Positions 4,717-61,022 of a stretch of DNA of 64,000 nucleotides are shown one piece after another (within the stretch, counting starts at the first letter, position 1; each line of letters begins with the position of its first letter). Position numbers and translations under genes: made by a program. The stretch lies in NCBI GenBank assembly GCA_049296855.1, contig JBAQTF010000010.1:22094-86093 (forward strand). Direction: 5' to 3'. The notes beneath the pieces are model-generated. The model was not told the DNA's origin, searched no databases, and saw nothing but the letters and a program-made list of their open reading frames with translations. Source of the stretch: Minisyncoccia bacterium (lineage in GTDB: Bacteria > Patescibacteriota > Minisyncoccia > Phycocordibacterales > DATDWN01).

Positions 4717-6156
4717 TTAGTTAAGACATTGTAATGGATTTATGTGCAGAGTATTTGTGTGTTTCTCTGCTTCGAGTATAATTTTTTCCATCATTTTAAC
4801 TGCCTCTACTGGATATTTACCCTTAGCCGTCTCGTCTGAAAGCATGACAACGTCCGCCCCCTCTAACACCGCCTCCGAGACATCTGTAATTTCTGCTCTA
4901 GTTGGCTCGGGATTTTCTACCATTGAAAAAAGCATTTGTGTAGCTACTATAACGGTTTTGTTAGCTGTTTTACACTTATTTATGATATCACTTTGAATAT
5001 AAGGTATTTTCTCAGGTGAAACATCTTTCCCTAAATCTCCTCTAGCTATCATAACTGCGTCACTAGATGCTATGATTTCGTAAATATTATCCACAGCTGC
5101 TTGGCGTTCTATTTTGGCAATAATTTTTTGTTTGCCAGAGTTTTTAGATATTATTTCCCTACACATTTCTATTTCCTTTGCACCACCAACAAAAGATAGA
5201 GCAATATAATCCACCTCTTTTTCTACACAAAACTTGATAAGATCCTTGTCAATCTCTGTTAAACCAGAAAGTGCCGAATGATTGAATTCGTGTCCATCTT
5301 GATTCTGTATTCTAGGTCCAGGTAAATCGGCAATAATAGGGATTTTTTTACCAGCATCACTACTAGCTCCCCTTACTAAATCAAAATATTCTTCGACATC
5401 CCTTTTATTCATCCAAGAAAAATTAAATCTTATAGCATCAACCTTGTTTGATAGCATCCTTATTAACGTTTCTTTTTCTATCGAAGATGGGCCTATTGTG
5501 GCTAAGATTTGAGTTTTTGAAATATCATACGATCGAATATCTGATTCAGCTTCCTTTATCTCTTTTTTAATCATGTGACCATTACTATCTAAATAGTAAA
5601 CAAAAACTTTTCCAAAAGGAAATTCGACATCAGCGATATCTTCATCAGAAATATTTTCAATATATTTTACCAAAGTCCGCATCGAGTTACCGTGTCCCAC
5701 AACTAAAACATTTTTATTCTCATTTATTTTAGGTAGTATTTTTTCTAGAAAAAATGGTACTACTCTTTCATAAACCATTTTTAGTGTCTCGCCGTTTGGT
5801 ATAGGGTAATCCCATCCGCGACGAAGTTTTCGAAACTCCTCCCCTCCCAACATTTTTTCCATTTCACCCTTATCTTTTCCGGTATAGTCACCATAGTCTC
5901 TTTCACTCAAAGAAGCCGAATGTTCAGTCGGAACATTAAATATATTGCAGACATTGAGCATACAAGAAAGCGTCTCTATGCTACGAACCTGCATAGAAGC
6001 AAAAGCGTAATCGATTTTAATGTCTTTCATCAGAAGTCCCAGATCTTCTGATTTTTCAAAACCAAGATCTGTTAAATGTCGGTCACGAGTACCTGTCCAT
6101 TTTCCAAGTTTGTTCCATTCTGACTCCTGATGTCTCGCGATGATTAATTTCCCCAT
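4717..6156 (-). CDS. Fusion protein: 2,3-BPG-dependent phosphoglycerate mutase (N-terminal half) joined to a lid-less pyruvate kinase barrel (C-terminal half)
   Basis: The N-terminal about 200 aa carry the histidine-phosphatase motifs (IIARHQESEWN ... VVGHGNSMRTL). The C-terminal about 270 aa carry pyruvate kinase motifs (IIADLPGPRIQ, KIIAKIERQAAVDN, MIARGDLG, VIVATQMLFSMVENPEPTRAEITDVSEAVLEGADVVMLSDETAKGKYP). There is no PK B/lid domain and no PK C-terminal domain. Confidence 0.8.
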   Translation of the reverse strand: MGKLIIARHQESEWNKLGKWTGTRDRHLTDLGFEKSEDLGLLMKDIKIDYAFASMQVRSIETLSCMLNVCNIFNVPTEHSASLSERDYGDYTGKDKGEMEKMLGGEEFRKLRRGWDYPIPNGETLKMVYERVVPFFLEKILPKINENKNVLVVGHGNSMRTLVKYIENISDEDIADVEFPFGKVFVYYLDSNGHMIKKEIKEAESDIRSYDISKTQILATIGPSSIEKETLIRMLSNKVDAIRFNFSWMNKRDVEEYFDLVRGASSDAGKKIPIIADLPGPRIQNQDGHEFNHSALSGLTEIDKDLIKFCVEKEVDYIALSFVGGAKEIEMCREIISKNSGKQKIIAKIERQAAVDNIYEIIASSDAVMIARGDLGKDVSPEKIPYIQSDIINKCKTANKTVIVATQMLFSMVENPEPTRAEITDVSEAVLEGADVVMLSDETAKGKYPVEAVKMMEKIILEAEKHTNTLHINPLQCLN

Positions 6157-6157
6157 A

Positions 6158-7129
6158 TTATTTATTTACTCTATTTATAACTTCCTTTCCTTCAAAAAAA
6201 TTAATTATATTTTCCGCAACAATTTTAGACATTTCTTGTCTTGCTTCAATACTTGCTGATGCAATATGTGGAGTTAGTATCACATTTTGTAACTTAATTA
6301 AGTCTGGAGAAATTTTTGGTTCAAATTCGAAAACATCGAGCCCTGCACCGGCGATAACTCCCCCCATCAAGGCTTTGATAAGTGATTCTTCTTCTATTAC
6401 AGGGCCTCTAGATGTGTTGACCAGAAACGCTGTTTTTTTCATAAGACTTATTTTCTCCCAATTAATCAGATGTCTTGTGCTTTCCAAAAGTGGCACGTGA
6501 ATACTGACGACATCAGCTTCTTTCAAAAGTTCCTCAATTGATTTGTGATATTCTGCACCACACTCATTTTCAATCTGCTCATTTCTTAAAACATCTTGAT
6601 AAATAATTTTCATTCCTAAACCCTTCGCGTAGTAGCCAACTCGACTACCAATCCTACCAACGCCAATTAGGCCCAGAGTTTTTCCCAAAATATCTGTGCC
6701 TATAAAATTAGTCGGAGACCAGCCATTGTACTTACCATCCCGAACAAACTGGTCAGCTTCAACTATCCTAGCCGCCAGTGCTAATATTAAAGCTAGAGTG
6801 TGCTCCGCAACAGCCTCAGAAGTTAGTCTTGCTGGAGCGTTAGCGACAGTAATACCTCTTTTTTTAGCTTCATTTATATCTATGTTATCAAAACCAGTTG
6901 CATAATTAATATAAAACTTAACATTTGGTACAGCGTCAAAAACTTTTGAATCGATTTTGTCTGTAAGTAAAGTCACAACAGCGTCATAAGGTTTTTTATT
7001 CAAAAAATCTATAATTTCCTCCTGACTTGGAATAACATCCGATTGATTGATATCAACCTTGTATCCTTTATCTTCTAGCATTTTTATACCAACCTCATCT
7101 ATCTTTCTAGTTAAGAATATATTTTTCAT
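6158..7129 (-). CDS. D-isomer-specific 2-hydroxyacid dehydrogenase (glycerate / phosphoglycerate dehydrogenase-like)
   Basis: NAD-binding GLIGVGRIGSRVG; catalytic region HIASAS. The start is set at MKNIFLTRK (7129-7127) because the 80-aa upstream extension in the ORF track overlaps the next gene and is not protein-like. Confidence 0.8.
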   Translation of the reverse strand: MKNIFLTRKIDEVGIKMLEDKGYKVDINQSDVIPSQEEIIDFLNKKPYDAVVTLLTDKIDSKVFDAVPNVKFYINYATGFDNIDINEAKKRGITVANAPARLTSEAVAEHTLALILALAARIVEADQFVRDGKYNGWSPTNFIGTDILGKTLGLIGVGRIGSRVGYYAKGLGMKIIYQDVLRNEQIENECGAEYHKSIEELLKEADVVSIHVPLLESTRHLINWEKISLMKKTAFLVNTSRGPVIEEESLIKALMGGVIAGAGLDVFEFEPKISPDLIKLQNVILTPHIASASIEARQEMSKIVAENIINFFEGKEVINRVNK

Positions 7130-17034: not shown

Positions 17035-17105
17035 TTGCGGGACCAGGACTTGCACCTGGGTCTGCAGGTTATGAGCCTACCGAGATACTGCTTCTCTATC
17101 CCGCT
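17035..17105 (-). tRNA. tRNA-Met (anticodon CAU), probably the initiator tRNA-fMet
   Basis: A1xA72 mismatch at the top of the acceptor stem (AGCGGGA/TCCCGCA), A11:U24 in the D-stem (GAGA/TCTC), anticodon loop CTCATAA, T-arm CCAGG-TGCAAGT-CCTGG. Confidence 0.65.
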
Positions 17106-17172: not shown

Positions 17173-18582
17173 TTAGATAATCTGAAACTCTTTAAACACA
17201 GTGCTGTATAATTCTACGACTCTCTTTGCTTCACGCTGTGATAGGGCAAACAACTGACCTTCGTGTGCAATCTGATTTCTAATTTTATGTGCTTCCCATG
17301 CGTTATCTACAGTTGTAAAATCACTTTTTTCTATCGCTTTCAATTTATCTCCTATGGTATCCCCTGGTAATGATAACTTTTCCAGAAGACTACTTAACAT
17401 TATATCTGCTTCTAATATTGCTAACCTCCAATCATTTTCATTTGGAGATTCAATATGAGCCAGAATTTGCTTCCATTGTGGATTAACATTAACTGTCGTT
17501 TTTGTAACATCTGGGTACAATGACTTTCTATCCTGTAATCGCAATTTTGTTAAATTTCTAAACAAATATACTATTGAACCGACACTAATAATCAGAAAAG
17601 CTATTAATAAATATTTCAAATAGTTAATAATTTTCCAAAACATGGCTGTTACTTTAGACGCAGGACTTTGTATCGCTGGATCTATATACCCAAGATCATT
17701 TTCAGATACCCAGCCCTCTTTTCCGTCATCAAATTTAATATGCCAATATTTCACTCCACCCCATACTAGTGGCCCATCTATTATAGTTCCCCTACTATCC
17801 GCTTTCTCTGTACCTATTTGTTTACCTCCTGGGCTATCATATATAGGTGTATCATTTTTCGAAGTCAAAACTTTCCCACCTATAATACTTGGTTTATCAG
17901 ATAATGGTGTGACTTTTTCTTGAATTTGATCCAGATCATCTTCTGCTACCCAACCGGTCGTTCCATCATCAAACTGTATTTTCCAATATTTCACACCATC
18001 TTTTGTGGATGGACCATCAACAACCTTGCCATTTGCATCGCGAGGTTCTGTAGTTATTTGATTTACACCTGGATCCGCAAAAACTACAGCTCTATTTTTT
18101 GACACGAGGACTCGTCCGTCTTTCGGATTTGAGGATTTAGAGAGGGGTACTCTAATATTTTCCAGAAAACTCAAACTACCCCCTCCTACCCAACCGTCTA
18201 CACCGTCTTCAAACTTTACGTGCCAATATTTCACACCATCTTTTATTATTGGCCCTTCTATTATGGTAGCTTTGGCTCCTTTTGGTTCACTGGCTATTTC
18301 AACTCCTCCCGGAGACGAGAGAACTGAAGTATCTTTTGAAGTTAATACCTTTCCGCCTATAAGAGTTACTACTTTCGACATCGGAACAGTTTTCTCTTTA
18401 ATTTCCACACCAAATATAGGAGCTAAAAAGCTGTTAGTTCTAATTGCAGATAAAAATCCATTCAGCAAATAAACAAAAAACAAAATAGAGATAATAAACC
18501 AAACCACCTCTACAAAAGGGTCTTTCTCTACGGTGGAAGCTGATTTATCAGCTGGTTTTTCAAATTTCTTTTCATCAGCCAT
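17173..18582 (-). CDS. Two-TM protein with three SH3b-like repeats (predicted extracytoplasmic) and a C-terminal HEPN-like domain carrying an R-x4-H motif
   Basis: TM1 at aa about 22-44. Three about 65-aa repeats (GGKVLTSK..SPGG..IDGP..GVKYWHIKFDDGxxGWVxExDL). TM2 at aa about 305-335. C-terminus ...EAHKIRNQIAHEGQLF... Confidence 0.6.
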   Translation of the reverse strand: MADEKKFEKPADKSASTVEKDPFVEVVWFIISILFFVYLLNGFLSAIRTNSFLAPIFGVEIKEKTVPMSKVVTLIGGKVLTSKDTSVLSSPGGVEIASEPKGAKATIIEGPIIKDGVKYWHVKFEDGVDGWVGGGSLSFLENIRVPLSKSSNPKDGRVLVSKNRAVVFADPGVNQITTEPRDANGKVVDGPSTKDGVKYWKIQFDDGTTGWVAEDDLDQIQEKVTPLSDKPSIIGGKVLTSKNDTPIYDSPGGKQIGTEKADSRGTIIDGPLVWGGVKYWHIKFDDGKEGWVSENDLGYIDPAIQSPASKVTAMFWKIINYLKYLLIAFLIISVGSIVYLFRNLTKLRLQDRKSLYPDVTKTTVNVNPQWKQILAHIESPNENDWRLAILEADIMLSSLLEKLSLPGDTIGDKLKAIEKSDFTTVDNAWEAHKIRNQIAHEGQLFALSQREAKRVVELYSTVFKEFQII

Positions 18583-18663: not shown

Positions 18664-20124
18664 CTATTCACCCAAAAATTTCTTACCGACTGTAAAAAGT
18701 AGATCCTCACAAGCATGTGGAGCCATGAACTGGATTCCAAGTGGTAAACTTTTACCTCCTTTTTTTATATTTCCCGCTGGAATTGATATAGCTGGAATAC
18801 CAACAATATTTGCTGGTACAGTAAAGACATCTTCCAGATAAAGGGAAAGTGGATCGTTTATTTTCTCACCTATTTTAAAAGCTACGCCTGGTGTTGTAGG
18901 AGTAACGATCACGTCGACTTTTTTAAATGCATTACTAAAATCATCTCCAATCTTCTGTCTCAATATCAATGCTTTGTTGTAATAAGCATCATGATAACCA
19001 GCTGATAGTACATAAGTACCTATGAGAATTCGTCTTCTGACTTCTTTACCAAATCCTTGTCCGCGAGTTTTTAGATAATCTTCGAGTAAATTCTTTCCAT
19101 CTATATGTAAACCATATTTAACACCGTCAAAACGAGCAAGGTTTGACGAGACTTCGGCTGGCATGAGAATATAATAAACCGCTAAAGAGTACTCTATATT
19201 TGGAAGTTTAATGTCTCTTATCTCAAATCCAGCATCTTTTAATCTTTGTATTGATTTATTGAAATTTTCCAAAACTTCAACTGATAATCCTCCTTTTTCT
19301 AATATGTGATATGGGACACCAATTACTAATTTTTCTTTAGATTTTCTTTTTTGGTGGTCATGCGACCACTGCTCGCTTTCAGCGGTTGCATAAATATCTT
19401 CACCATAAGTAGTACTATCCATTTTATCTTTACCCTTTATAATATTCCAGAGAATCTCTGAATCTGTTACTGTTTTTGTAATTGGCCCTATAACATCTAG
19501 AGACGAGCCCATAGCCATGAGTCCATAACGTGACACTCCACCATAAGTTGGTTTAAGTCCGACCATACCGCAAAATGAGGCTGGTTGTCTAACAGAACCA
19601 CCTGTATCTGATCCTAGAGAAGCTAGAGCACCAGCCATAGCAACAGAAGCCGAGGAGCCTCCGGAAGAACCTCCGGCAACACGTTCTAAGTCATTTGGAT
19701 TTTTTGTCACACCAAAAGCTGAATTCTCTGTAGAACCCCCCATGGCAAATTCATCCATATTCGTTCGGCCTAAAAATACAACCCCTTCTGACTTAAGTTT
19801 TTTTATTACCGTTGCGTCATATGGAGCAATATACCCTTCTAGAATTTTTGAAGCCGAAGTTACCTTCCTTCCAGAAATCAAAATATTATCTTTTATACTC
19901 ATTGGTATCCCAGTAAGAGTTCCTGTGGTCCCATTTTTTATTTTTTCATCAGCAACATCTGCCTGTGACAAAACATCTCCATAGACCTCGAGATAAGCAT
20001 TTATATCTTTATTAACAGAAGCAATGTGATCAAGATACTTCTGTGCTAACTCCCTCGCTGAAAAATCTTTATTAGCTAAACATTTTATCGCCTGTTTTAT
20101 TGTCAATGAGTAAATATCATTCAT
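18664..20124 (-). CDS. gatA: Glutamyl-tRNA(Gln)/aspartyl-tRNA(Asn) amidotransferase subunit A
   Basis: 486 aa. Amidase-signature stretch GGSSGGSSASVAMAGA. Confidence 0.9.
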   Translation of the reverse strand: MNDIYSLTIKQAIKCLANKDFSARELAQKYLDHIASVNKDINAYLEVYGDVLSQADVADEKIKNGTTGTLTGIPMSIKDNILISGRKVTSASKILEGYIAPYDATVIKKLKSEGVVFLGRTNMDEFAMGGSTENSAFGVTKNPNDLERVAGGSSGGSSASVAMAGALASLGSDTGGSVRQPASFCGMVGLKPTYGGVSRYGLMAMGSSLDVIGPITKTVTDSEILWNIIKGKDKMDSTTYGEDIYATAESEQWSHDHQKRKSKEKLVIGVPYHILEKGGLSVEVLENFNKSIQRLKDAGFEIRDIKLPNIEYSLAVYYILMPAEVSSNLARFDGVKYGLHIDGKNLLEDYLKTRGQGFGKEVRRRILIGTYVLSAGYHDAYYNKALILRQKIGDDFSNAFKKVDVIVTPTTPGVAFKIGEKINDPLSLYLEDVFTVPANIVGIPAISIPAGNIKKGGKSLPLGIQFMAPHACEDLLFTVGKKFLGE

Positions 20125-20399
20125 AAAATCTTTTTTACTTTAAGATAATTCCCCTCTCTAGAAGATGCATTTTGTAAAAGTCTCCCCGTGTATTCTCCTT
20201 CTTTATTTGTGACTTCATCATCACGCATCACGTTATGAAGTTTTGGAGTAATTTTTTCAACATCTCCAGTTGAATCTTTGATTTGACTGACGTATCCCAA
20301 AATAGAATCTATTTCAGAAGTCATTCTAACTACTTCTTCAGGACTGACTTCTATACGAGCAAGATTGGCGAGATTTTTTATATCTTCTTTTGTGATCAT
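20121..20399 (-). CDS. gatC: Glu/Asp-tRNA amidotransferase subunit C
   Basis: MITKEDIKNLANLARIEVSPEE... is GatC-like. The start is taken at the internal Met (aa 60 of the ORF-track entry). Stop/start overlap with gatA. Confidence 0.75.
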   Translation of the reverse strand: MITKEDIKNLANLARIEVSPEEVVRMTSEIDSILGYVSQIKDSTGDVEKITPKLHNVMRDDEVTNKEGEYTGRLLQNASSREGNYLKVKKIL

Positions 20400-20884: not shown

Positions 20885-23433
<2,549 letters not shown>

Positions 23434-35550: not shown

Positions 35551-35563
35551 ATTCGCTTCAATG

Positions 35564-35651
35564 CGGACAGAGTGAGATTCGAACTCACGGTACCAATTAA
35601 GGTACGGCGGTTTAGTAAACCGCTGGTTTAAGCCACTCACCCATCTGTCCA
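35564..35651 (-). tRNA. Class II tRNA-Ser-like gene with a non-canonical anticodon loop (UUACUAA) and an 8-nt T-loop; possible pseudogene
   Basis: Acceptor GGACAGA/TCTGTCC with discriminator G, D-arm GGT..ACC, anticodon stem GCGGT/ACCGC with loop TTACTAA, long variable arm GTACC-ttaattg-GTAC, T-arm GTGAG-TTCGGAAT-CTCAC. Confidence 0.45.
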
Positions 35652-35845
35652 ATTTCTTCATATTAACACAAGATTTACATTTACGATCGCCTATAAAAAT
35701 GCTAATGTGTGGCTAAGTAAAATCAGTTTTAGATGGCTCAGATGCTAGGCGCTGACGAAGCTTGTGACCAAAGTGTATACGTATACTCTGCAGGAACAAC
35801 TGGAGTCAGCAACGACGCAGATGAATCATATCAAACTGATTTTTT

Positions 35846-35934
35846 GGAGACGTGTCAGAGTGGTCTATCGTACCTCTTTGCTAAAGAGGTGGAGGCTTTA
35901 AACCCTCCCGATGGTTCGAATCCATCCGTCTCCG
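35846..35934 (+). tRNA. tRNA-Ser (anticodon GCU)
   Basis: Acceptor GGAGACG/CGTCTCC with discriminator G, anticodon stem-loop CCTCT-TTGCTAA-AGAGG, long variable arm TGGAGG...CCTCCC, T-arm GATGG-TTCGAAT-CCATC. I could not fold a clean D-arm by hand. Confidence 0.7.
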
Positions 35935-37547
35935 CCCGAAACCCTTTTTCGTCCTACAAGAGCTTCAAAACCTTCCTTTAAGCTATATTTTAAGAGCTTT
36001 CTGTCTTTAATGACTATTTCGGAAAAAATCAAAGTTACAATTTCTCGCTTTTCACTATCAAGTGCGTGGTCAAAATAAATACTGGCATTTTTTATTAACT
36101 CTGAGAATGTAATTACGAACTTCAACATATCTTGAGCACTCTCTCCATAAACCTTAATTTCCTCCTCTATAGCAATTCTAGAGCCATTTAAACGGGTTTC
36201 TTCAGCAACTATATCTTCTGGTACCATTGCTTTCGTTCTCATTAAAGTAATTCTGTTTTCTGTAAGGAACTCAATGTTCTTACTAACCTCTCTATGTTTA
36301 TTATATAAGTCACTTAACTTCTTATCCCTTTGCCCTGCTATTATCGCTAGTTCTTTTTTTGCCTTAGATTCAATATCAGCTATTTCAGGGTCAGTAAAAT
36401 AAAGACCATCAATAATATTCTTAAACATAGAGGTTAATTCCTTTTCTGAAATATTTACATCTGGATTGTCACAGTCTAATTTACATCTTGATCTGTAGTA
36501 GGTATATCCTTTTTGTGGGTAAGGGCTGTAACATCTACCACAAGTACAATTAGCCATTCCACGATAAGCAAAAAATGGTTTATCAATATAACGAATTGTT
36601 TTTGAACGTTTTTTAAGAACTTCTTGAACTTTAATAAATAATGCACTATCAATTATAGGTTTATGTGCAGTGCTCGTTATATATTCATTGTGACCAATCT
36701 TAACTTTTCCTATGTAAAAAGGATTACTCAAAATTGATTCAACCGACTTATGATCAATCGGTCCAGAGACCTTCGGTAGCAAATCAAAATCAATTCCATT
36801 TTCCTGTTCCTCTTTAGTTCTCTTTCTTCTCTTGGGTCTTTTTGTTAAACCATTTTTTGTTGCCCATTTTGCAAGCTGCATAAAACTCCATTCTCCAGTC
36901 GCATACATTTCAAAAAGTCTTTTTATTAAAGGTGCTCTCTCGGGATCAATTGGTTTATTATCGGAGCCTCTATTAAGATAACCCAATGGAACGCTATATA
37001 TACATTTTCCTTCAGCTCTTAATTTTTCTTGACTGTATCTAACTTTTTCACTTATAACATCAGAATAATACTCAGCGAACATTCCTTGTACGTTCATATT
37101 GACCTTGCCTCCACTATTCTTATCAAACTGCATATCTGTGAATCTGATATCACATCCTTGCTCAACCAATCTCTGAATTATTACATTATCTTGGGCGTTT
37201 CTACTTGCTCTATCCCAGCAAAGAATAACAACCCCTTTAATTTTCTTGTCTTTCAGTAGTCGGATAAGTTTTACAAACTTTGGACGAAGGACACGATTAC
37301 TAAAAATGCCGTTTTCACCAATATCAAAATCATCATCTTCTTTATATCCAGAATGACTTTCATTTATAACTCCCTTTTCACAAAACCTTTCAATTGTTAG
37401 ATCAGCTATCGGGAGATTGTGTTTTCTCGCATATTCTTGATTAAGACTGCTCTGATATGTCAGAGAGTTTTTTTGATTCTCTTTATCATCAGTACTCTTT
37501 CGGTTATAAATCAAATATTTGTCTTTGTATTGATCTCCAATTTCCAT
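35898..37547 (-). CDS. Large serine recombinase (resolvase-domain integrase)
   Basis: 549 aa. N-terminal catalytic region LIYNRKSTDDKENQ, recombinase and zinc-ribbon regions with several Cys. The 3' end of the ORF overlaps the 3' end of tRNA-Ser(GCU). Confidence 0.85.
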   Translation of the reverse strand: MEIGDQYKDKYLIYNRKSTDDKENQKNSLTYQSSLNQEYARKHNLPIADLTIERFCEKGVINESHSGYKEDDDFDIGENGIFSNRVLRPKFVKLIRLLKDKKIKGVVILCWDRASRNAQDNVIIQRLVEQGCDIRFTDMQFDKNSGGKVNMNVQGMFAEYYSDVISEKVRYSQEKLRAEGKCIYSVPLGYLNRGSDNKPIDPERAPLIKRLFEMYATGEWSFMQLAKWATKNGLTKRPKRRKRTKEEQENGIDFDLLPKVSGPIDHKSVESILSNPFYIGKVKIGHNEYITSTAHKPIIDSALFIKVQEVLKKRSKTIRYIDKPFFAYRGMANCTCGRCYSPYPQKGYTYYRSRCKLDCDNPDVNISEKELTSMFKNIIDGLYFTDPEIADIESKAKKELAIIAGQRDKKLSDLYNKHREVSKNIEFLTENRITLMRTKAMVPEDIVAEETRLNGSRIAIEEEIKVYGESAQDMLKFVITFSELIKNASIYFDHALDSEKREIVTLIFSEIVIKDRKLLKYSLKEGFEALVGRKRVSGGDGWIRTIGRV

Positions 37548-37580
37548 AGTGTTTCTTCTAACTTAATTATAAATAAAGCT

Positions 37581-37835
37581 TTAGCTTTGACTATGAGGTG
37601 ATTGTGGGCAGTGAACCTCGCCATCTTTTATTACATACCCCTCAGCTATAAGCCTGAGGTGTACACCCTTGAGAACATCAGTAAACTTAAGAATATTTTT
37701 GATTCCATTTTCACTGAAACTGATATTTTTGGATTCAAAATCTGACTCTTTGATGGAAACGCCAGTCTCCAAAGAGCCAGATTCTAAAACCAATTCTTTT
37801 TTAATCTCTTTCTTTTTCATAATAAAACTACCCAT
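37581..37835 (-). CDS. Hypothetical protein
   Basis: 84 aa; no recognisable motif. Confidence 0.4.
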   Translation of the reverse strand: MGSFIMKKKEIKKELVLESGSLETGVSIKESDFESKNISFSENGIKNILKFTDVLKGVHLRLIAEGYVIKDGEVHCPQSPHSQS

Positions 37836-37884
37836 AATTATGGGCTTTATAGAAATAGATATTTGAATATAGGCTTATTCGGGA

Positions 37885-38490
37885 CTAAATAGGATTATTT
37901 TTACTGTGAGCTACCTCTAATTCGTTAGTCAATTTTTCAATATTAACCCTATTTTGGTTAAGTTCTAAAGCTGTAACTTCCTTTCTAAACATCACATCGT
38001 TCTTTCCTCTCTTTGGGAAAAATGCTTTCAGGATTTCTCCCTTGAAACCCAGTGCATTTATTATTTTCGGAAAAGTTTTTCCAGAAACATCTTTCTTTAA
38101 ATACTCAGGCATCATTTCTCTTTCTATATGCTGACCATTATTTTCAAAAAGATACTCAAAAAAACTCATATTTTTTCCTGTTGCGTGAGGCTTACTTAAT
38201 AGATAACTGTTAATCCAAATTTCTCTATCCTTTATTGAAACTTTAAAGTTATCAGTAGTACTTACCGAATCTATGTTTTTGTAATGAGCTGAGTTAACTA
38301 AATCAACCAACATTCCATTAGCAATTAGTGGTGGAGGTACTTGCTTCTCAAAATGAGCAATCTGCTCATCAAGTTCTTTAAGTTCCTTTGTGTACGGAAC
38401 TCCTATGCCAAGACGAAACCTCTCAGAGGCTCTTTGTTGAACTTCTTCTCTTATGGCACGTAGATGTCTTAAAGTTTGTTCGGGGGTCAT
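37885..38490 (-). CDS. Hypothetical protein
   Basis: 201 aa; protein-like composition, no recognisable motif. Confidence 0.45.
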   Translation of the reverse strand: MTPEQTLRHLRAIREEVQQRASERFRLGIGVPYTKELKELDEQIAHFEKQVPPPLIANGMLVDLVNSAHYKNIDSVSTTDNFKVSIKDREIWINSYLLSKPHATGKNMSFFEYLFENNGQHIEREMMPEYLKKDVSGKTFPKIINALGFKGEILKAFFPKRGKNDVMFRKEVTALELNQNRVNIEKLTNELEVAHSKNNPI

Positions 38491-38727
38491 TGGCGTTTCC
38501 TCTTTTTGTCATTTAAGCATATTTCATTTATAATCAGGTTACAACTGAATATACCGTTAGCCTAACCCTAGAAGGTAACTTCTAGGTATGGCACAAAATC
38601 GCACGATACAAGAAAACCCGTTATTAGGGCGTATCGTGCGTTATGCAGGGAAACTTGCATAGAGGTCTTCGGACCTTCCTAGTAGCGGGCTTTGTTGTGT
38701 CTGGCTACTAGTTATAACTTAACTAGT

Positions 38728-39933
38728 ATGAAAAAATACCTTTTTGTTTCTCTTGTAATAATTTTAATAATCCCTTCAGTTACGTTTGCAGCTTGGTGGA
38801 ATCCATTTACTTGGTCAATCTTTCAAAGAGCTCCAAAAGTTGAGGTTCAAAAAACTGAACAAGTTTCCACAACTACGGCTCCTAAAGATAACTCTGAAAT
38901 TGACGCATTAAAACAAGAAATTGCTGACCTAAAAAATCAAGTCAATCAACCAAAGCCTGAGACAAAGAAAGTAACAACCACAACAAAACCTCCCGTAACA
39001 ACCAAAGTTGCAGAAACACCGAAAGTTACAGTAACTCCAACAGTATCAGTCTCTGTTTCAAAAAATCCTGCTTCTCAATGTCTTGCAACAAAAGACAGTT
39101 GGAATAGTTTTATTAAGATAAAAAATGATGTAGATACAAAGCTTTTAGCTCTTATATCTTCTTACAACAAATCTGCTTGGGGTACAGGAAATAAACCATC
39201 AGAAGTTATCGCTCAATTTTCGTATAACTATGAAAGGATGAACCCTGCAAAAACGAAGTTCTTTTCGGATGCAGATGCGATTGATAAAGTGATTGATACA
39301 ATTCCTCAACCTCCAGTTTCAAGCAATACAATTCTTGACCAAATTAAAAAGAATTTTAACAACAGCGTTGCGTCATATAGAAGTGCTTACGAACTGACTC
39401 TCAGTTCATTTAAAGTTATTGCAGATGATGATAATGGGTTATCAAAAGCAGAAATTGATACAACATTGTCACTTCTCAATGATGGTAGCGATAAGTTCAA
39501 AGAAGGATCATCAAACTGGAATCTTAATAATCCCTTCTTTGATACTAATGACTACCGAAGTCTTAAAAAAGCTCTTAACTCACAATACTCTTCAAATGGC
39601 TGTGCTTTCACATTCTTTTCTAATGACACCATAGAGACTACAATACCCGAGGAATACAATTTTACTCAGCAGATGCCAAAGTCTAATGCTAACTCTGATG
39701 GCTCTGCCACGGTCTCTATAGCGACAACTTTGCCCATTGAAACAGACGTTGGTGGAACAAACAAGACAGTTTTAAAACTAATATGTAATGGTGGAGAGTT
39801 ACCAGTTTCTCAAATTGATCCAAAAACTGTAGGTATACATATATCTAAAAATAACTACAACCTTGAATGTCATTTTACTTACACTGGGAATGGAAATACT
39901 TTATCAACCAGAATGCTATACTTTAATTACTAA
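38728..39933 (+). CDS. Secreted or surface protein with a signal peptide and a Thr/Pro/Val-rich linker
   Basis: MKKYLFVSLVIILIIPSVTFAAWW signal-like N-terminus, then a KKVTTTTKPPVTTKVAETPKVTVTPTVSVSVS tract. Confidence 0.55.
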   Translation: MKKYLFVSLVIILIIPSVTFAAWWNPFTWSIFQRAPKVEVQKTEQVSTTTAPKDNSEIDALKQEIADLKNQVNQPKPETKKVTTTTKPPVTTKVAETPKVTVTPTVSVSVSKNPASQCLATKDSWNSFIKIKNDVDTKLLALISSYNKSAWGTGNKPSEVIAQFSYNYERMNPAKTKFFSDADAIDKVIDTIPQPPVSSNTILDQIKKNFNNSVASYRSAYELTLSSFKVIADDDNGLSKAEIDTTLSLLNDGSDKFKEGSSNWNLNNPFFDTNDYRSLKKALNSQYSSNGCAFTFFSNDTIETTIPEEYNFTQQMPKSNANSDGSATVSIATTLPIETDVGGTNKTVLKLICNGGELPVSQIDPKTVGIHISKNNYNLECHFTYTGNGNTLSTRMLYFNY

Positions 39934-39936
39934 ACT

Positions 39937-40341
39937 ATGAAAGTATACAATATCACTAAAGGTCAGCTAATTACTTTGTGGATTTTTGGGGGAATAGGTA
40001 TGTTTTGGGCATTGGTTCAAGCTGATAGTTACTCTACAGAAGACAGAGGTATATTTTTCTTATGGTTCATACCTTTAGTTTTAATTTTTTACACTATTGG
40101 ATGGAAAAACTATAAGAAAAATAAACCAAGTAATTCATACGAGCATCTTTCTGAAGATGATCTGTATGAAGAAGTAAAAAACTTAGTAATAAAGGAACAA
40201 AAAGCTTCAACTTCTTTTATTCAGAGGAAACTGGGAATTGGTTATGCTAGAGCTGCTAGATTAATGGATGTTTTAGAAGAAAATGGGGTTATAGGAGAAG
40301 GCAGAGGTGCAGAGCCAAGAAATGTGATAATTAAGGAGTAA
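39937..40341 (+). CDS. Membrane-anchored protein with a C-terminal FtsK-gamma-like winged-helix domain
   Basis: Two N-terminal TM segments. C-terminus ASTSFIQRKLGIGYARAARLMDVLEENGVIGEGRGAEPR resembles FtsK gamma (...LQRRLRIGYNRAARLIE...). Confidence 0.55.
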   Translation: MKVYNITKGQLITLWIFGGIGMFWALVQADSYSTEDRGIFFLWFIPLVLIFYTIGWKNYKKNKPSNSYEHLSEDDLYEEVKNLVIKEQKASTSFIQRKLGIGYARAARLMDVLEENGVIGEGRGAEPRNVIIKE

Positions 40342-40403
40342 GTCCTGTTAGGGTCAAGTCATAGGTATCATTTTAATGATTCTGTATGATCTGAGGATGA
40401 AGT

Positions 40404-40441
40404 AAGGCTAGATTTTCTAATCTTGCCGTGCTTAACTTAAT
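40404..40441 (+). repeat. 38-bp direct repeat, left copy
   Basis: AAGGCTAGATTTTCTAATCTTGCCGTGCTTAACTTAAT. It has one mismatch to the copy at 43179-43216. Confidence 0.8.
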
Positions 40442-40450
40442 GCAATTACA

Positions 40451-40921
40451 ATGAAAGACCTCCTGCAACAATTACTCTGGAAAACATTGGGATATGGTGT
40501 TGTACCAACAATAATCCTATGGAATGGCGACCATAGCCCAAAGACTTGGTTAATAACACTTCTTATCGTATTGGTAGTAAGCTCTCTTACTACTTATTAT
40601 TCTCTCTTAGATAAGAAAGAGGAAAAATATAAAAAAGATATATTTGCTATTCAACAAAAAGCACAGGCTGAAGTTACTGAAGCAACAAAGCTAAAAGAAA
40701 GAGCTGTAGTAGAACAAGAAATCTGGAAACAAACAATGCTAGAAAGAAATGCGGGGTTTAAAACGCTCCTGTCATATATAAGTTATTTTGAAAAATTAAG
40801 AGATGAACCAATAACACATTATCTACATACCAAAAAACATCCAGCTCCGTCTGCTGGAGAAGTCGTGAAGGAACAAACGAAAAGGCGTAGAGAAGCAGAT
40901 TTTCTAAACAAGAGAACATAA
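40451..40921 (+). CDS. Hypothetical membrane protein with a coiled-coil region
   Basis: 156 aa; TM segments at the N-terminus. Confidence 0.45.
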   Translation: MKDLLQQLLWKTLGYGVVPTIILWNGDHSPKTWLITLLIVLVVSSLTTYYSLLDKKEEKYKKDIFAIQQKAQAEVTEATKLKERAVVEQEIWKQTMLERNAGFKTLLSYISYFEKLRDEPITHYLHTKKHPAPSAGEVVKEQTKRRREADFLNKRT

Positions 40922-40933
40922 GCTCTTATAGAA

Positions 40934-41677
40934 ATGTACGAACAGTACGCACCCTTTCTTGTTGATCTAAAGGATGATATCCCTGACGTTGATGATGTAA
41001 AAATATTTGAAGAATATAGTGAAGAAGAAAGACAAGATGAGGTTGTTAATTATTTAACTAAAGAAGAGTACAGAAAACTTCCATCTGTAGAGAGAAATCA
41101 ACTTGCTCTAGATAGATTTTGGGATAGACCAAAATCTAAATGGCTTATAGGTAAATTATATGAAAGATACGTAGGCTTTTTATACGAACAGAAGGGTTAT
41201 AAAGTAAAGTACTTTGGAATAGACGAGAGATACGAAGATATGGGTAGAGATTTGATTTGTCACAAAGGTGATGAGACATTGATTATTCAATGTAAAAATT
41301 GGGCTGAGTTTAGAACGATATATGAAAAACATATTTTTCAACTTTTTGGAACAATCTTTGAATATAAAGAGTCACATCCAAATGAAAAAGTGAAAGCCAT
41401 CTTTTGTACTACAACTCAACTTTCACCACTAGCAAGAAAGATCGCAACCACATTAGGGATTGAACTATATGAAAACTTCAAGTTTGATAAAAAATATCCT
41501 TGCATAAAATGTAATATAAGCACTCAAGGCGACCAAAAGATCTACCATCTACCTTTTGACCAAAAATATGACGAGACTAAGATTGATAGAAAAGGAGAGA
41601 TGTATTGCATCACAGTAAAAGAAGCTGAGGAGGCAGGATTCAGAAGAGCATTCAGATGGCAGGGAGAAAAAGTGTAA
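40934..41677 (+). CDS. Mrr-like restriction-endonuclease-fold (PD-(D/E)xK) protein
   Basis: ERYEDMGRDLICHKGDETLIIQCKNW matches the Mrr_cat pattern (G-x-D ... E/Q-x-K); C-terminal CxxC... Confidence 0.6.
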   Translation: MYEQYAPFLVDLKDDIPDVDDVKIFEEYSEEERQDEVVNYLTKEEYRKLPSVERNQLALDRFWDRPKSKWLIGKLYERYVGFLYEQKGYKVKYFGIDERYEDMGRDLICHKGDETLIIQCKNWAEFRTIYEKHIFQLFGTIFEYKESHPNEKVKAIFCTTTQLSPLARKIATTLGIELYENFKFDKKYPCIKCNISTQGDQKIYHLPFDQKYDETKIDRKGEMYCITVKEAEEAGFRRAFRWQGEKV

Positions 41678-41695
41678 TATTAAAAGTATTATTAA

Positions 41696-42901
41696 TTAAT
41701 AGAGCCATTCTAATTTTATTCTCCAATCGTGCCTATTTACTAAATTTATATCATTAGTAATTCCAGTTGAACGAGGATCAGCCATCATAAGGCTAATGCT
41801 GAATGTTTCCTTGATATTATTTGCATCACCCTTCCAAAGAACTTTGCTTATAAACTTTCTAGTCAAAGATTGTAGTTTATAAAGATTTTTCGTTATTAAT
41901 TCAATTTCCTCTTTTTCTAATGGAGTAAATCTGCCGTGAGCTATATTACTTCTCAAATCGTATAAGACATATTCTTTTCCACTCTTTCCTTTAATCTTTT
42001 TCTTAAAAGCCTTAAATGCATTGCTTTCTTTACCAAGAACAGCTTCTAAAACCTTTTTAGTCTTACTGTAATTACCTATTTCCTTATGGAATAGCTTTCC
42101 TAAAATCTTATTGAAAAAGTCTTTAACGAACTTCTTTTCTGCTTTCTGAAAACCATAATCTTTACTAGCTTCCATCTCACCATCGTGCAAATTCAAGGCT
42201 AGTTTTTCTAATGCGAAGTAATAACTCAAGAAACTTAAAAGAGGATTCTCATTAGATAGTCTATTTCCTTCTTGATACCAACTAATAACATTATCAAGTA
42301 AAACGCTGTCGTCTCCTTGAAATTTACGTACGTAGTCTTCAGCGATTCTAGTATCTTCGTCTGTTAAATTAATCATTCCACCACCCCCTCTACTACTATG
42401 CGGATATTTAAGAAACCAATCATATTTGGCATTAATTCCGTACGCTAATCTGTAAAGAAAGATGTTGATTAGATCCAGTCCTTCCTCTATTGCTTTAATG
42501 GTAATTTCTGGAATTTCTAAAGAACAATCATATACTTGCAAGTTTGCTTCAGTATTATTCTCTAAATTAACAACTTCAATCTTTCTCATATGTAGGTGAC
42601 CTATATCGTGGCTGACTCCACTGTCAGAGTAAGTTGTAGAGAAATTGCCTTTAACTATAAACTCTATAACAGGAAATCCTGTAGCTAACATATATTTTAA
42701 ACAACCTGTTATTCTATGATCTGTATCTTCGGTTACCATAGATCTTACTTTTTTATCTAATGCATCTATATCACCTAAATATAAAAGAGGTCTCCATTCT
42801 CCATATGGATTATATCGGGCAGGTATTGGTCTCGGATAAACAGGTAAGTCTTTGGTTTCTTCCATAACATCAATACTGTACCTATTTGGGTTTTCCATCA
42901 A
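41696..42901 (-). CDS. Hypothetical 401-aa protein with an R-x4-H HEPN-like motif
   Basis: ...EYVLYDLRSNIAHGRFTPLEKEE... carries R-x4-H. The same local motif ([IL]R[NS]xIAH[EG]) occurs in the protein at 17173..18582. Convergent with the Mrr-like gene. Confidence 0.5.
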   Translation of the reverse strand: MMENPNRYSIDVMEETKDLPVYPRPIPARYNPYGEWRPLLYLGDIDALDKKVRSMVTEDTDHRITGCLKYMLATGFPVIEFIVKGNFSTTYSDSGVSHDIGHLHMRKIEVVNLENNTEANLQVYDCSLEIPEITIKAIEEGLDLINIFLYRLAYGINAKYDWFLKYPHSSRGGGGMINLTDEDTRIAEDYVRKFQGDDSVLLDNVISWYQEGNRLSNENPLLSFLSYYFALEKLALNLHDGEMEASKDYGFQKAEKKFVKDFFNKILGKLFHKEIGNYSKTKKVLEAVLGKESNAFKAFKKKIKGKSGKEYVLYDLRSNIAHGRFTPLEKEEIELITKNLYKLQSLTRKFISKVLWKGDANNIKETFSISLMMADPRSTGITNDINLVNRHDWRIKLEWLY

Positions 42902-59492: not shown

Positions 59493-61022
59493 CTAGCGTG
59501 CAAACTCGATAGTTCGTAACTCACGAATGACGGCTACTTTGATTTCACCTGGATATTTGAGTTCAGATTCTATTCGAGTAGCTATATCTCTAGCCATTCT
59601 TTTAGCTTCTAAGTCTGTCACTTCAGTAGGAGTAACAAAAATCCTTATTTCACGGCCTGCTTGAAGAGCGTATGACTTTTCAACACCTTTGAATGAATTG
59701 GCCACTGCTTCTAGGTCTTTTAGTCGTTTTAAGTAATTTTCGACACTGTCTCTTCTCGCTCCTGGACGTCCGCCAGATATAGCATCTGCGGACTGGACTA
59801 TCATTGATTCTAAAGTTTCATAAGGATATTCCTCATGATGTGCTTGCATTGCTTTGATAATGTCTTCGTCTGTACCAAATTTTTGAAGAATCCTGCGCCC
59901 TATTTCAACGTGCGTACCAATAACTTCATGATCTAGTGCTTTACCAATGTCATGAACAAGTGCACCCGCTTTTGCTATTTGAACATTTGCACCAATTTCT
60001 TCAGCAAGCATACCCGCAATATGAGTCATCTCTACTGAGTGAGCTAATACATTCTGACCATAACTTGTACGAAAATGAAGTCTACCTAATATAGATATTA
60101 CTCTAGAATCAAGTCCCAAAACTCCAGTTTCATAAACAGCTTCTTCACCTTTTTCTTTTATTATCTTCGTAATTTCTTGTTCTGACTTAGCAACCATTTC
60201 TTCTATTTTTGCTGGCTGAATACGCCCATCAGCAATAAGTTTTTCCAATGCCAGTCTAGCGACCTGACGACGGACAGGATCAAAAGAGGAGATGGTGATA
60301 GAGCCTGGTGTATCATCGACAATGACCTCGACTCCAGTGCAACGCTCGAAAGCTTTGATGTTTCGTCCCTCTTTCCCAATAATTTTTCCTTTCAGTTCAT
60401 CGTTTGGTATCTCCACATGAGTTGTCATCATATCCGAAGTCACAGAGTTTGAAAGACGCTGAATCGATGCGGCAAGAATTCCTTTAGCTTTTTCTTCAAG
60501 TTTTTCTTGACCAGTCATCTCCAATTTTCTCATGCGAGCAAGAATATCTTCTTCTGATTCTCTTTCTACAGTTCGAAGAATTTCTATCTTTGCCTCTTCA
60601 GGTGTCAATCTAGCTATTTTCTGTAACTCCTCCTTTTTTTGAAGTTCAGTTTTTTCAGCAGTTTCTCTTATGACTTTTATCTCCTGAATCCTTTTTTTGA
60701 CCTCTTCAACCTCTTTATCCATTTCTGTCTGTCTATTCAAAAGTAACTCATCTTTTTTGACAAGTCTTTCTTCCGTTTTCTTGTTATCATCCTCCTTCTG
60801 TTTAATCTCGACACGAGCAACTTTCAAAATCTCTTCAGCCTTTTTGTCGGCTTCGTCGATGATCGCTTTCTCGCGGTTCTTTGCTTCGAGCATCATTTGT
60901 TTGATGTCGAGCTCCATCGAACCTTTTTTCCCAAGTGAAATAATCAGACGCAGATAATAACCTAATCCTAATGATATAAGCGATGCTGTACTAAGTAACA
61001 GCGCAACTATTTTTAATGACAT
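59493..61022 (-). CDS. rny: Ribonuclease Y
   Basis: N-terminal TM, coiled coil, KH domain (GKIIGKEGRNIKAFE), HD domain (HSVEMTHIAGMLA...HDIGK). Confidence 0.9.
   Translation of the reverse strand: MSLKIVALLLSTASLISLGLGYYLRLIISLGKKGSMELDIKQMMLEAKNREKAIIDEADKKAEEILKVARVEIKQKEDDNKKTEERLVKKDELLLNRQTEMDKEVEEVKKRIQEIKVIRETAEKTELQKKEELQKIARLTPEEAKIEILRTVERESEEDILARMRKLEMTGQEKLEEKAKGILAASIQRLSNSVTSDMMTTHVEIPNDELKGKIIGKEGRNIKAFERCTGVEVIVDDTPGSITISSFDPVRRQVARLALEKLIADGRIQPAKIEEMVAKSEQEITKIIKEKGEEAVYETGVLGLDSRVISILGRLHFRTSYGQNVLAHSVEMTHIAGMLAEEIGANVQIAKAGALVHDIGKALDHEVIGTHVEIGRRILQKFGTDEDIIKAMQAHHEEYPYETLESMIVQSADAISGGRPGARRDSVENYLKRLKDLEAVANSFKGVEKSYALQAGREIRIFVTPTEVTDLEAKRMARDIATRIESELKYPGEIKVAVIRELRTIEFAR

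Follow-up and report, generated by a model that had tools for sequence, protein, structure and literature searches.

The window analysed here, a 64,000-nucleotide stretch of contig JBAQTF010000010.1 from a Minisyncoccia bacterium (assembly GCA_049296855.1), carries on the minus strand, at 17173..18582, an open reading frame (ORF) of 469 amino acids (aa) plus stop codon, starting with ATG, whose product combines two transmembrane (TM) segments and three SH3b-like repeats with a C-terminal domain that very probably belongs to the HEPN superfamily. The G+C content of the gene (0.37-0.38) is that of the surrounding window. Exactly two hydrophobic segments were found in the protein with a 19-aa Kyte-Doolittle scan, and the order of parts, all coordinates being on the minus strand, is as follows: an N-terminal tail, predicted to be cytoplasmic (residues 1-25, 18508..18582); TM1 (residues ~26-48, 18439..18507); repeat 1 (residues 65-143, 18154..18390), repeat 2 (residues 144-223, 17914..18153) and repeat 3 (residues 224-302, 17677..17913); TM2 (residues ~322-341, 17560..17619); a basic juxtamembrane helix with a variable linker, recognised from the positive-inside count, which begins RNLTKLRLQDRK (residues 342-362, 17497..17559); and the HEPN-fold domain (residues 363-469, 17176..17496). 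Within this last domain, the motif R435-N436-x3-H440 (17263..17280), which is part of an invariant AWEAHKxRNxIAH, forms the predicted active site. TM2 and the HEPN domain are only 21 residues apart, and linker residues 357-363 were of low confidence in the AlphaFold model. An earlier note, made from the sequence of this stretch, had read the same succession of a TM segment, SH3b-like repeats, a second TM segment and an R-x4-H domain, and this architecture was borne out.

The C-terminal domain, of about 107 aa, is helical and includes AWEAHKIRNQIAHEG, which contains R435, N436 and H440. Its conservation was followed in alignment A1, consisting of 48 C-terminal-domain sequences that are <70% identical to each other (A1 position + 362 gives the protein numbering), while alignment A2 consists of 31 three-repeat homologues at full length. 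An AlphaFold2 model of residues 363-469, built with A1, reached a mean predicted local distance difference test score (pLDDT) of 94.8 and a predicted template-modelling score (pTM) of 0.87, and places helices at domain positions 6-16, 20-40, 63-82 and 87-103, with a further short helix (48-54) in a long insert. As described by Anantharaman et al. 2013 (PMC3710099), HEPN domains are four-helix up-down bundles with an insert between helices 2 and 3 and an Rx4-6H motif where helix 3 ends, and they have a polar residue (N, D or H) immediately after the arginine and an acidic residue in helix 2. All of these traits were found in the C-terminal domain when its model was read together with A1. R435-x4-H440 (domain positions 73-78) lies within helix 63-82, at helix 3's end, and is invariant in both A1 and A2, as is the polar residue following the arginine, N436; the acidic pair E391/D393 (in the sequence EAD) sits in helix 20-40. 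With invariant R, N and H and an acidic pair kept across thousands of clusters, the conservation has the pattern of an active site, whereas inactive HEPN domains typically lack the Rx4-6H motif (PMC3710099).

Structural comparison of the domain model also pointed to HEPN proteins. The matches were, with their scores in brackets, AF0298 (2hsb, 10.4), the HepT toxin SO_3166 (5yep_B, 9.7), TTHA0636 (1wwp, 9.6), an AMPylated HEPN toxin (8xdj, 9.1), YutE (1ylm, 8.6), Csx1-Crn2 (8y7f, 8.5), a further HEPN toxin (7ae2, 8.4) and, each at 8.2, HI0074 (1jog), Csm6 (6tug), the HEPN domain of sacsin (3o10) and kanamycin nucleotidyltransferase (6nlt). Judged from this model, the structurally closest known HEPN proteins are the small HepT-type domains, and R102/H107 of HepT chains of 141-147 aa occupy a position relative to the C-terminus comparable to that of R435/H440. 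Foldseek returned no match at E<=1e-3 for the C-terminal domain model; its matches with a TM-score >=0.5 (5yep_B, TM-score 0.67 and probability 0.89; 1wty; 7ae6; 2hsb) were all HEPN-type, which provides weak independent support for the predicted fold and not proof of it. Below threshold, Pfam gave HEPN_Swt1 for 29 of the 48 A1 members (best E 0.0034), Cthe_2314-like HEPN for 9, RiboL-PSP-HEPN for 7, pEK499_p136 for 6, and DUF4145 and Hypoth_Ymh for 2 each. For the window protein itself, the HEPN_Swt1 score was 13 bits, with the cut-off at 27.5, and the NCBIfam model for Cas13e gave E 0.13, both matches falling on R-N-x3-H. The HEPN-like domain with conserved arginine and histidine that the earlier note had predicted is thus upheld by the modelled fold and by the invariance of both residues in A1. 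Weak matches to MukF and glutamate dehydrogenase from a sequence-profile search of the PDB were discarded as noise. As a separate observation, sub-threshold matches were obtained for 14 of the 48 A1 members (best E 7.3e-05) to Pfam CTD11, which in ABC-three-component conflict systems is the C-terminal domain numbered 11.

The three repeats were delimited by self-comparison, the structural model and Foldseek, and for repeat 2 also by Pfam. They recur with a period of 79-80 aa, longer than the 65 aa or so first estimated, share 42-49% pairwise identity (BLASTP E 1e-22 to 5e-27), and all end in GVKYW[HK][IV][KQ]F[DE]DGxxGWV. In the full-length model, built with A2 (mean pLDDT 81.5), the repeats are all-beta with pLDDT 80-92, TM1 forms helix 22-48, and TM2 lies inside a long helix (307-355) that runs on into the cytoplasm. 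When this model was compared with the PDB by Foldseek, 32 matches were obtained at E<=1e-3, all of which carry SH3-like barrel modules, either bacterial SH3b or eukaryotic Tudor and mostly in tandem, in agreement with the beta-barrel fold initially proposed. These include a model of the B. subtilis amidase YrvJ (2e-8), the SETDB1 triple Tudor, Bacteroides and Photobacterium NlpC/P60 enzymes with SH3b, the Listeria autolysin 5jqc, the Clostridium phage endolysin Psm and a Trichomonas NlpC, with the teichoic-acid-binding domain of Lactobacillus SlpA just beyond the cut-off (E 3e-3). Pfam scores on the repeats came close to their cut-offs for SH3_3 (PF08239; 25.0 bits against 27) and GW (PF13457; 21.0 against 21), with Tudor_5 at 25.7 against 31, the best score in each case falling on repeat 2. 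Many homologues carry precomputed GW and SH3_3 annotation in Pfam, and the protein is named 'GW dipeptide domain-containing protein' by NCBI. On the strength of the Foldseek matches, the near-threshold Pfam scores and the NCBI name, the label SH3b/GW-like is appropriate. SH3b/GW-type barrels are of the kind that binds peptidoglycan or teichoic acid, and as SH3b/GW modules the repeats are ordinary but unusually placed.

The orientation of the protein in the membrane was predicted from the distribution of positive charge in 272 homologues, in which the mean number of K+R per 15-aa flank was 2.0 before TM1, 1.15 after it, 1.44 before TM2 and 3.82 after it. By the positive-inside rule, these counts suggest that the N-terminal tail and the HEPN domain are cytoplasmic and that the loop and its repeats are extracytoplasmic, as the earlier note had supposed. 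To our knowledge, all known SH3b modules are extracytoplasmic, which agrees with the predicted topology. The tail itself starts with a conserved MA[DE]EKK and carries DPFVE directly before TM1; M1, A2 and K5 are invariant in A2, and pLDDT is <50 over residues 1-18. Both the MA[DE]EKK start and DPFVE were observed to be nearly invariant in many members, repeat-bearing and repeat-less alike, and to be missing from a second subfamily, whose sequences begin MQTMDPL.. or MDARF... The two motifs could be a cytoplasmic regulatory peptide or reflect a constraint on translation initiation.

Searching 5.8 billion proteins with the full protein as query yielded 294 relatives, all named as proteins of Minisyncoccia, Paceibacterota, Parcubacteria or Patescibacteria metagenome-assembled genomes (MAGs). 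Their lengths are quantised, at about 312, 390, 475, 550, 605 and 697 aa, and these steps indicate one to six repeats. A further 853 proteins were found using the C-terminal 128 aa alone, and among those matches listed most are of 190-225 aa and lack repeats, comprising two TM segments with a short loop and the same C-terminal domain. A hidden Markov model (HMM) of A1, searched against 1.84 billion cluster representatives, detected 2827 clusters (50% identity) at E<=1e-3, with 1780 at E<=1e-10 and 657 at E<=1e-30, and the HEPN-like domain was C-terminal in every match listed. W[ED]xH[KR]xRNxxxH was kept in all 120 of the homologues listed. In A1, residues W8, L34, F60, A66, W67, H70, R73, N74, H78, F101 and E103 are invariant, E29 and D31 (E391 and D393) are >=90% conserved, and the mean column identity of the cytoplasmic domain is 66%. 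Among 76 species-level members, the number of repeats was 0 in 54, 1 in 14, 3 in 5, 4 in 2 and 6 in 1. The constant part of the family is the cytoplasmic domain, while the ectodomain is variable and usually absent; the family core is accordingly a TM hairpin with a HEPN domain, and the SH3b repeats are a lineage-specific insertion into its outer loop. Because most members are devoid of ectodomain repeats, the family's ancestral logic is not that of an outside sensor.

Relatives were present in at least 585 genomes when one genome per GTDB species was scanned. The locus survey described below covers the best 80 of these genomes, the taxa of which bear Patescibacteria-group names or none, apart from one contig filed as a Nitrospira sp. 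MAG; many MAG taxon names are generic. These counts cover genomes that carry a relative. No family in Pfam, NCBIfam, PADLOC or PHROGs matched the C-terminal domain above threshold, and literature searches on HEPN domains in Patescibacteria, on HEPN combined with SH3b and TM segments, on membrane-anchored HEPN RNases and on CTD11 of ABC-3C systems brought up no account of the family. It represents a so far undescribed HEPN-like family with its own membrane architecture.

Directly upstream of the HEPN-like gene, across an 81-bp gap, lies gatA, encoding an amidase subunit (18664..20124), preceded by gatC (20121..20399, mapped from positions 6184-6462 of locus L001) and, further upstream, by ligA, encoding an NAD-dependent DNA ligase (20885..22912), all on the minus strand. 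On the same strand, a tRNA-Met(CAT) gene (17034..17105, ARAGORN) begins 68 bp downstream of the HEPN-like gene; after it comes a perfect 11-bp hairpin, AAAAAACTCCC-AGAT-GGGAGTTTTTT, with a T-run (17002..17027), which was read directly in the sequence. A consensus terminator scan did not flag this hairpin and found no terminator-like site between gatA and the HEPN-like gene. The hairpin is likely the terminator of a unit comprising gatC, gatA, the HEPN-like gene and the tRNA gene, and the HEPN-like gene is almost certainly co-transcribed with gatC-gatA.

The same arrangement recurs among relatives. In five contigs, carrying members with 0, 3 or 4 repeats, the order is type IV pilin/prepilin peptidase, ligA, gatC, gatA and the HEPN-like gene. 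In the survey, 70 of the 71 loci with enough sequence had a same-strand gatA directly upstream, the gap being <=210 bp in 67 of them (median 28 bp), and ligA was upstream in 57 of 60. Of 60 loci, 49 had a tRNA-Met(CAT) gene no more than 1.5 kb downstream, and in 31 of these it was on the same strand; the downstream neighbours of the family gene are tRNA or variable genes. As GatA identity to the window GatA is only 54-73% across the surveyed loci, the gatA-linked order has been conserved across deep divergence. No MNT, antitoxin or recurrent partner gene was found beside family members in the five loci inspected, and it is gatA that stands upstream in the 70 of 71 surveyed. In Paceibacteria/Minisyncoccia, the family constitutes a core gene that is passed on vertically.

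A separate observation concerns gatB, which is absent after gatC-gatA in the window and in loci L001-L006; the usual operon is gatCAB. A regular-expression search of the 64-kb window detected no GatB motif, and there was no Pfam GatB match within 8 kb in five loci. The HEPN-like gene was considered as a GatB stand-in and this was rejected, since a 107-aa HEPN domain cannot supply GatB chemistry; the juxtaposition remains an observation of synteny.

The explanation that best accommodates the whole, and to which slightly better than even confidence is given, is that the protein is a membrane-tethered HEPN endoribonuclease with a housekeeping or regulatory function, which the envelope may tune, encoded by a core gene that travels with gatCA. 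It would span the inner membrane as a TM hairpin with both ends in the cytoplasm and an outer loop holding the three SH3b/GW-type repeats, and its cytoplasmic C-terminal domain would represent a new HEPN family with the full catalytic signature. Going by the superfamily, the most likely activity is that of a metal-independent endoribonuclease tethered at the inner face of the membrane, and by analogy with other HEPN RNases the protein probably dimerises, so that two R-x4-H motifs would form one composite active site. Such an enzyme may cleave RNA in a housekeeping or regulatory capacity, processing or turning over mRNA or tRNA at the membrane. The ancestral form would have had only a short outer loop, the SH3b repeats (0 to 6 copies by lineage, 3 here) being an accessory insertion whose effect would be to attach the protein to the cell wall or to alter its state of oligomerisation. 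It is the vertical inheritance and the gatCA linkage of this core gene that argue for a housekeeping or regulatory role and not for a conflict system.

Several points weigh against this explanation. No curated HEPN model reached its gathering score, either with the window protein or with the 48 A1 members. Some HEPN domains bind without catalysis, and RNase activity is here a prediction from sequence. A HEPN RNase left unregulated would be toxic, and neither an inhibitor nor a regulator was identified. The tRNA-Met gene is on the opposite strand in 18 of the 49 loci, which also weakens the proposal that it is an obligatory co-transcribed partner, and the gatCA synteny may be a frozen gene order as opposed to a functional link. 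Finally, a canonical RNase Y (RNase_Y_N + KH + HD) is encoded in the same window (59493..61022, minus strand), so that a general role in mRNA decay is not obviously vacant. The idea that the HEPN protein replaces RNase Y in a reduced genome was rejected for the same reason, and because of this RNase Y the HEPN protein is not simply a membrane decay nuclease. A specialised role, such as cleavage of tRNA or membrane-proximal mRNA, quality control or stress regulation, is more plausible.

A serious rival, if a fairly unlikely one, is that the HEPN domain is non-catalytic and binds RNA, a nucleotide or a protein, acting as a tether or scaffold that holds tRNA, GatCA or ribosomes at the membrane or wall. 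Binding-only HEPN members (the KNTase C-terminal domain, sacsin and Swt1) are among the structural matches (PMC3710099), the close linkage to gatC-gatA would suit a physical partnership, and bulk decay is already covered by RNase Y. What speaks against a purely binding role is that non-catalytic HEPN domains typically lose Rx4-6H (PMC3710099), whereas R, N and H are invariant in this family and the helix-2 acidic residues are >=90% conserved. An envelope protein, in which the repeats anchor the membrane to the wall or place the type IV pilus machinery and the C-terminal domain serves as a structural plug, would account for the likeness of the repeats to the wall-binding modules of autolysins and S-layer proteins and for the type IV pilin and prepilin peptidase cluster found upstream of ligA in all loci inspected. 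Such a protein is, however, at odds with a family in which the universally conserved part is the cytoplasmic domain (mean column identity 66%), in which most members have no repeats, and in which ligA and gatCA separate the pilus genes from the HEPN-like gene, and this explanation is considered highly improbable.

The function suggested in the earlier note was that of an abortive-infection or dormancy effector or a surface-sensing toxin, in which phage contact or envelope damage would trigger a suicidal HEPN RNase. Most prokaryotic HEPN domains do belong to conflict systems, as toxin-antitoxin modules, abortive infection (Abi) proteins or accessory RNases of CRISPR systems (PMC3710099), the closest structural matches take in HepT toxins, Csm6 and Csx1, and the architecture would allow activation from the outside in. 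Nevertheless, in 70 of 71 loci, which come from different species, the gene is found at one fixed chromosomal site following gatCA, with no adjacent MNT, antitoxin or other partner, its neighbours are housekeeping genes, and no match was found in PADLOC-DB 2.0. Furthermore, no relatives were detected among 50,697 phage records, 72,556 plasmids and 2.9 million IMG/VR contigs, an ectodomain is missing from 54 of the 76 species-level members, and the tyrosine of the HepT HxY motif is replaced (AHEG here). The toxin proposal did not withstand these findings and is now regarded as improbable, and the housekeeping or regulatory RNase is preferred over it.

That explanation can be compared with several known systems. 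Three groups of bacterial membrane-associated HEPN proteins were predicted by Anantharaman et al. 2013 (PMC3710099), for which stimulus-dependent RNA cleavage at the inner membrane face was the logic proposed. As in the protein described here, their HEPN domain is cytoplasmic, keeps its Rx4-6H motif intact and is joined to TM segments and, possibly, to external domains. The first group has a single TM segment with a WP signature and a DUF4145-type HEPN domain, whereas two TM segments and no WP signature are seen in A2, and DUF4145 was weakly matched by only 2 of 48 members; the second has an Abi2/Swt1 HEPN domain after one TM segment preceded by an alpha-helical domain, and the third an N-terminal HEPN domain, two TM segments and a Zn-ribbon, both unlike the present arrangement. 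With the order TM, 0-6 SH3b repeats, TM and C-terminal HEPN, the family fits none of the three. It also differs from them in being confined to Patescibacteria-type genomes, in its housekeeping operon context and in having no Pfam or NCBIfam model. The class of membrane-associated HEPN proteins was already known; what is new is the HEPN family, its membrane architecture and a core-gene context unusual for a prokaryotic HEPN.

A functional analogy can be drawn with Ire1, in which a lumenal sensor is connected through a TM segment to a cytosolic HEPN (KEN) RNase activated by oligomerisation (PMC3710099). In Ire1, a Ser/Thr kinase lies between the single TM segment and KEN, and KEN is a circularly permuted HEPN domain, whereas the protein studied here has no kinase, a canonical helix order, a TM hairpin and no sequence relationship to Ire1, and most members of its family lack a sensor domain. 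The earlier note had called the coupling of an outside sensor to an RNase unusual; it is less so than the note suggested, Ire1 and the membrane HEPN groups (PMC3710099) being precedents for the principle. A minimal bacterial counterpart of Ire1, in which, in repeat-bearing lineages, binding of the SH3b repeats to the cell's own wall or to a host surface would set dimerisation of the TM hairpin and hence RNase activity, is viewed as unlikely; under it, cleavage of specific tRNAs or membrane-proximal mRNAs would couple the state of the envelope or of attachment to translation, and the invariant linkage to gatCA and the frequent tRNA-Met neighbour hint that the substrate would be tRNA-related. 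Many Patescibacteria are episymbionts.

Other comparisons concern single parts of the protein. The HepT/MNT toxins (SO_3166, 5yep; the Aphanizomenon HEPN toxin, 7ae2 and 8xdj) are soluble, are encoded beside an MNT antitoxin and carry an RX4HXY motif with an AMPylated tyrosine, whereas the present protein is membrane-anchored and gatCA-syntenic, with no MNT neighbour and with RNQIAHEG in place of a tyrosine-containing motif; the position two residues after the histidine is glycine, not tyrosine, in nearly all homologues. The SH3b/GW modules of YrvJ, the Listeria autolysin, Psm, NlpC/P60 enzymes and SlpA are, as here, tandem SH3-like barrels of about 80 aa with a G-W dipeptide, but no hydrolase accompanies them in this family, where they are placed inside the outer loop of a TM hairpin with a HEPN domain at the other end. 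RNase Y likewise is a housekeeping endoribonuclease tethered by an N-terminal TM segment, in Gram-positive-type bacteria, but its KH + HD fold is unrelated and its mechanism depends on metal.

The genomes of Patescibacteria (the Candidate Phyla Radiation, CPR) are tiny, and a large part of their conserved genes has no known function. One such conserved family now gains a fold, a probable chemistry (HEPN RNA cleavage, as predicted from the motif) and a predicted topology. If correct, a core, partner-less membrane HEPN would be a rare case of a domesticated bacterial HEPN RNase, comparable to the eukaryotic Las1 and Ire1, and the repeat-bearing variants would offer a simple model of outside-in control of RNA cleavage.

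Elsewhere in the window, a 401-aa protein with an R-S-x-I-A-H motif is encoded at 41696-42901 on the minus strand, with weak matches to MauJ (E 0.0018) and to DzbB of PADLOC (E 0.0048). The earlier note had linked this protein to the one at 17173..18582; the generic R[NS]xIAH motif is indeed common to both, but homology was ruled out (BLASTP E=0.92). A restriction-type nuclease with an Mrr_cat domain lies at 40934-41677 (plus strand), and a large serine recombinase at 35898-37547 (minus strand) adjoins two tRNA-Ser genes. The stretch from 36 to 42 kb is low in G+C (0.33), and the region 35563-42901 is probably an integrated element or a defence islet. Should one of the two R-x-x-I-A-H proteins be a conflict-system HEPN, it is that at 41696..42901 rather than that at 17173..18582. 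Of the two tRNA-Ser genes, the one at 35563-35650 (minus strand, ARAGORN) has the unusual anticodon ACT and could be an attachment-site remnant or a mis-call, while a normal tRNA-Ser(GCT) lies about 200 bp away at the edge of the recombinase gene (35845-35937, plus strand). Lastly, a single ORF at 4717-6156 (minus strand) was seen to fuse His_Phos_1 (residues 4-193) to a pyruvate kinase barrel, which is unusual for a glycolytic enzyme.

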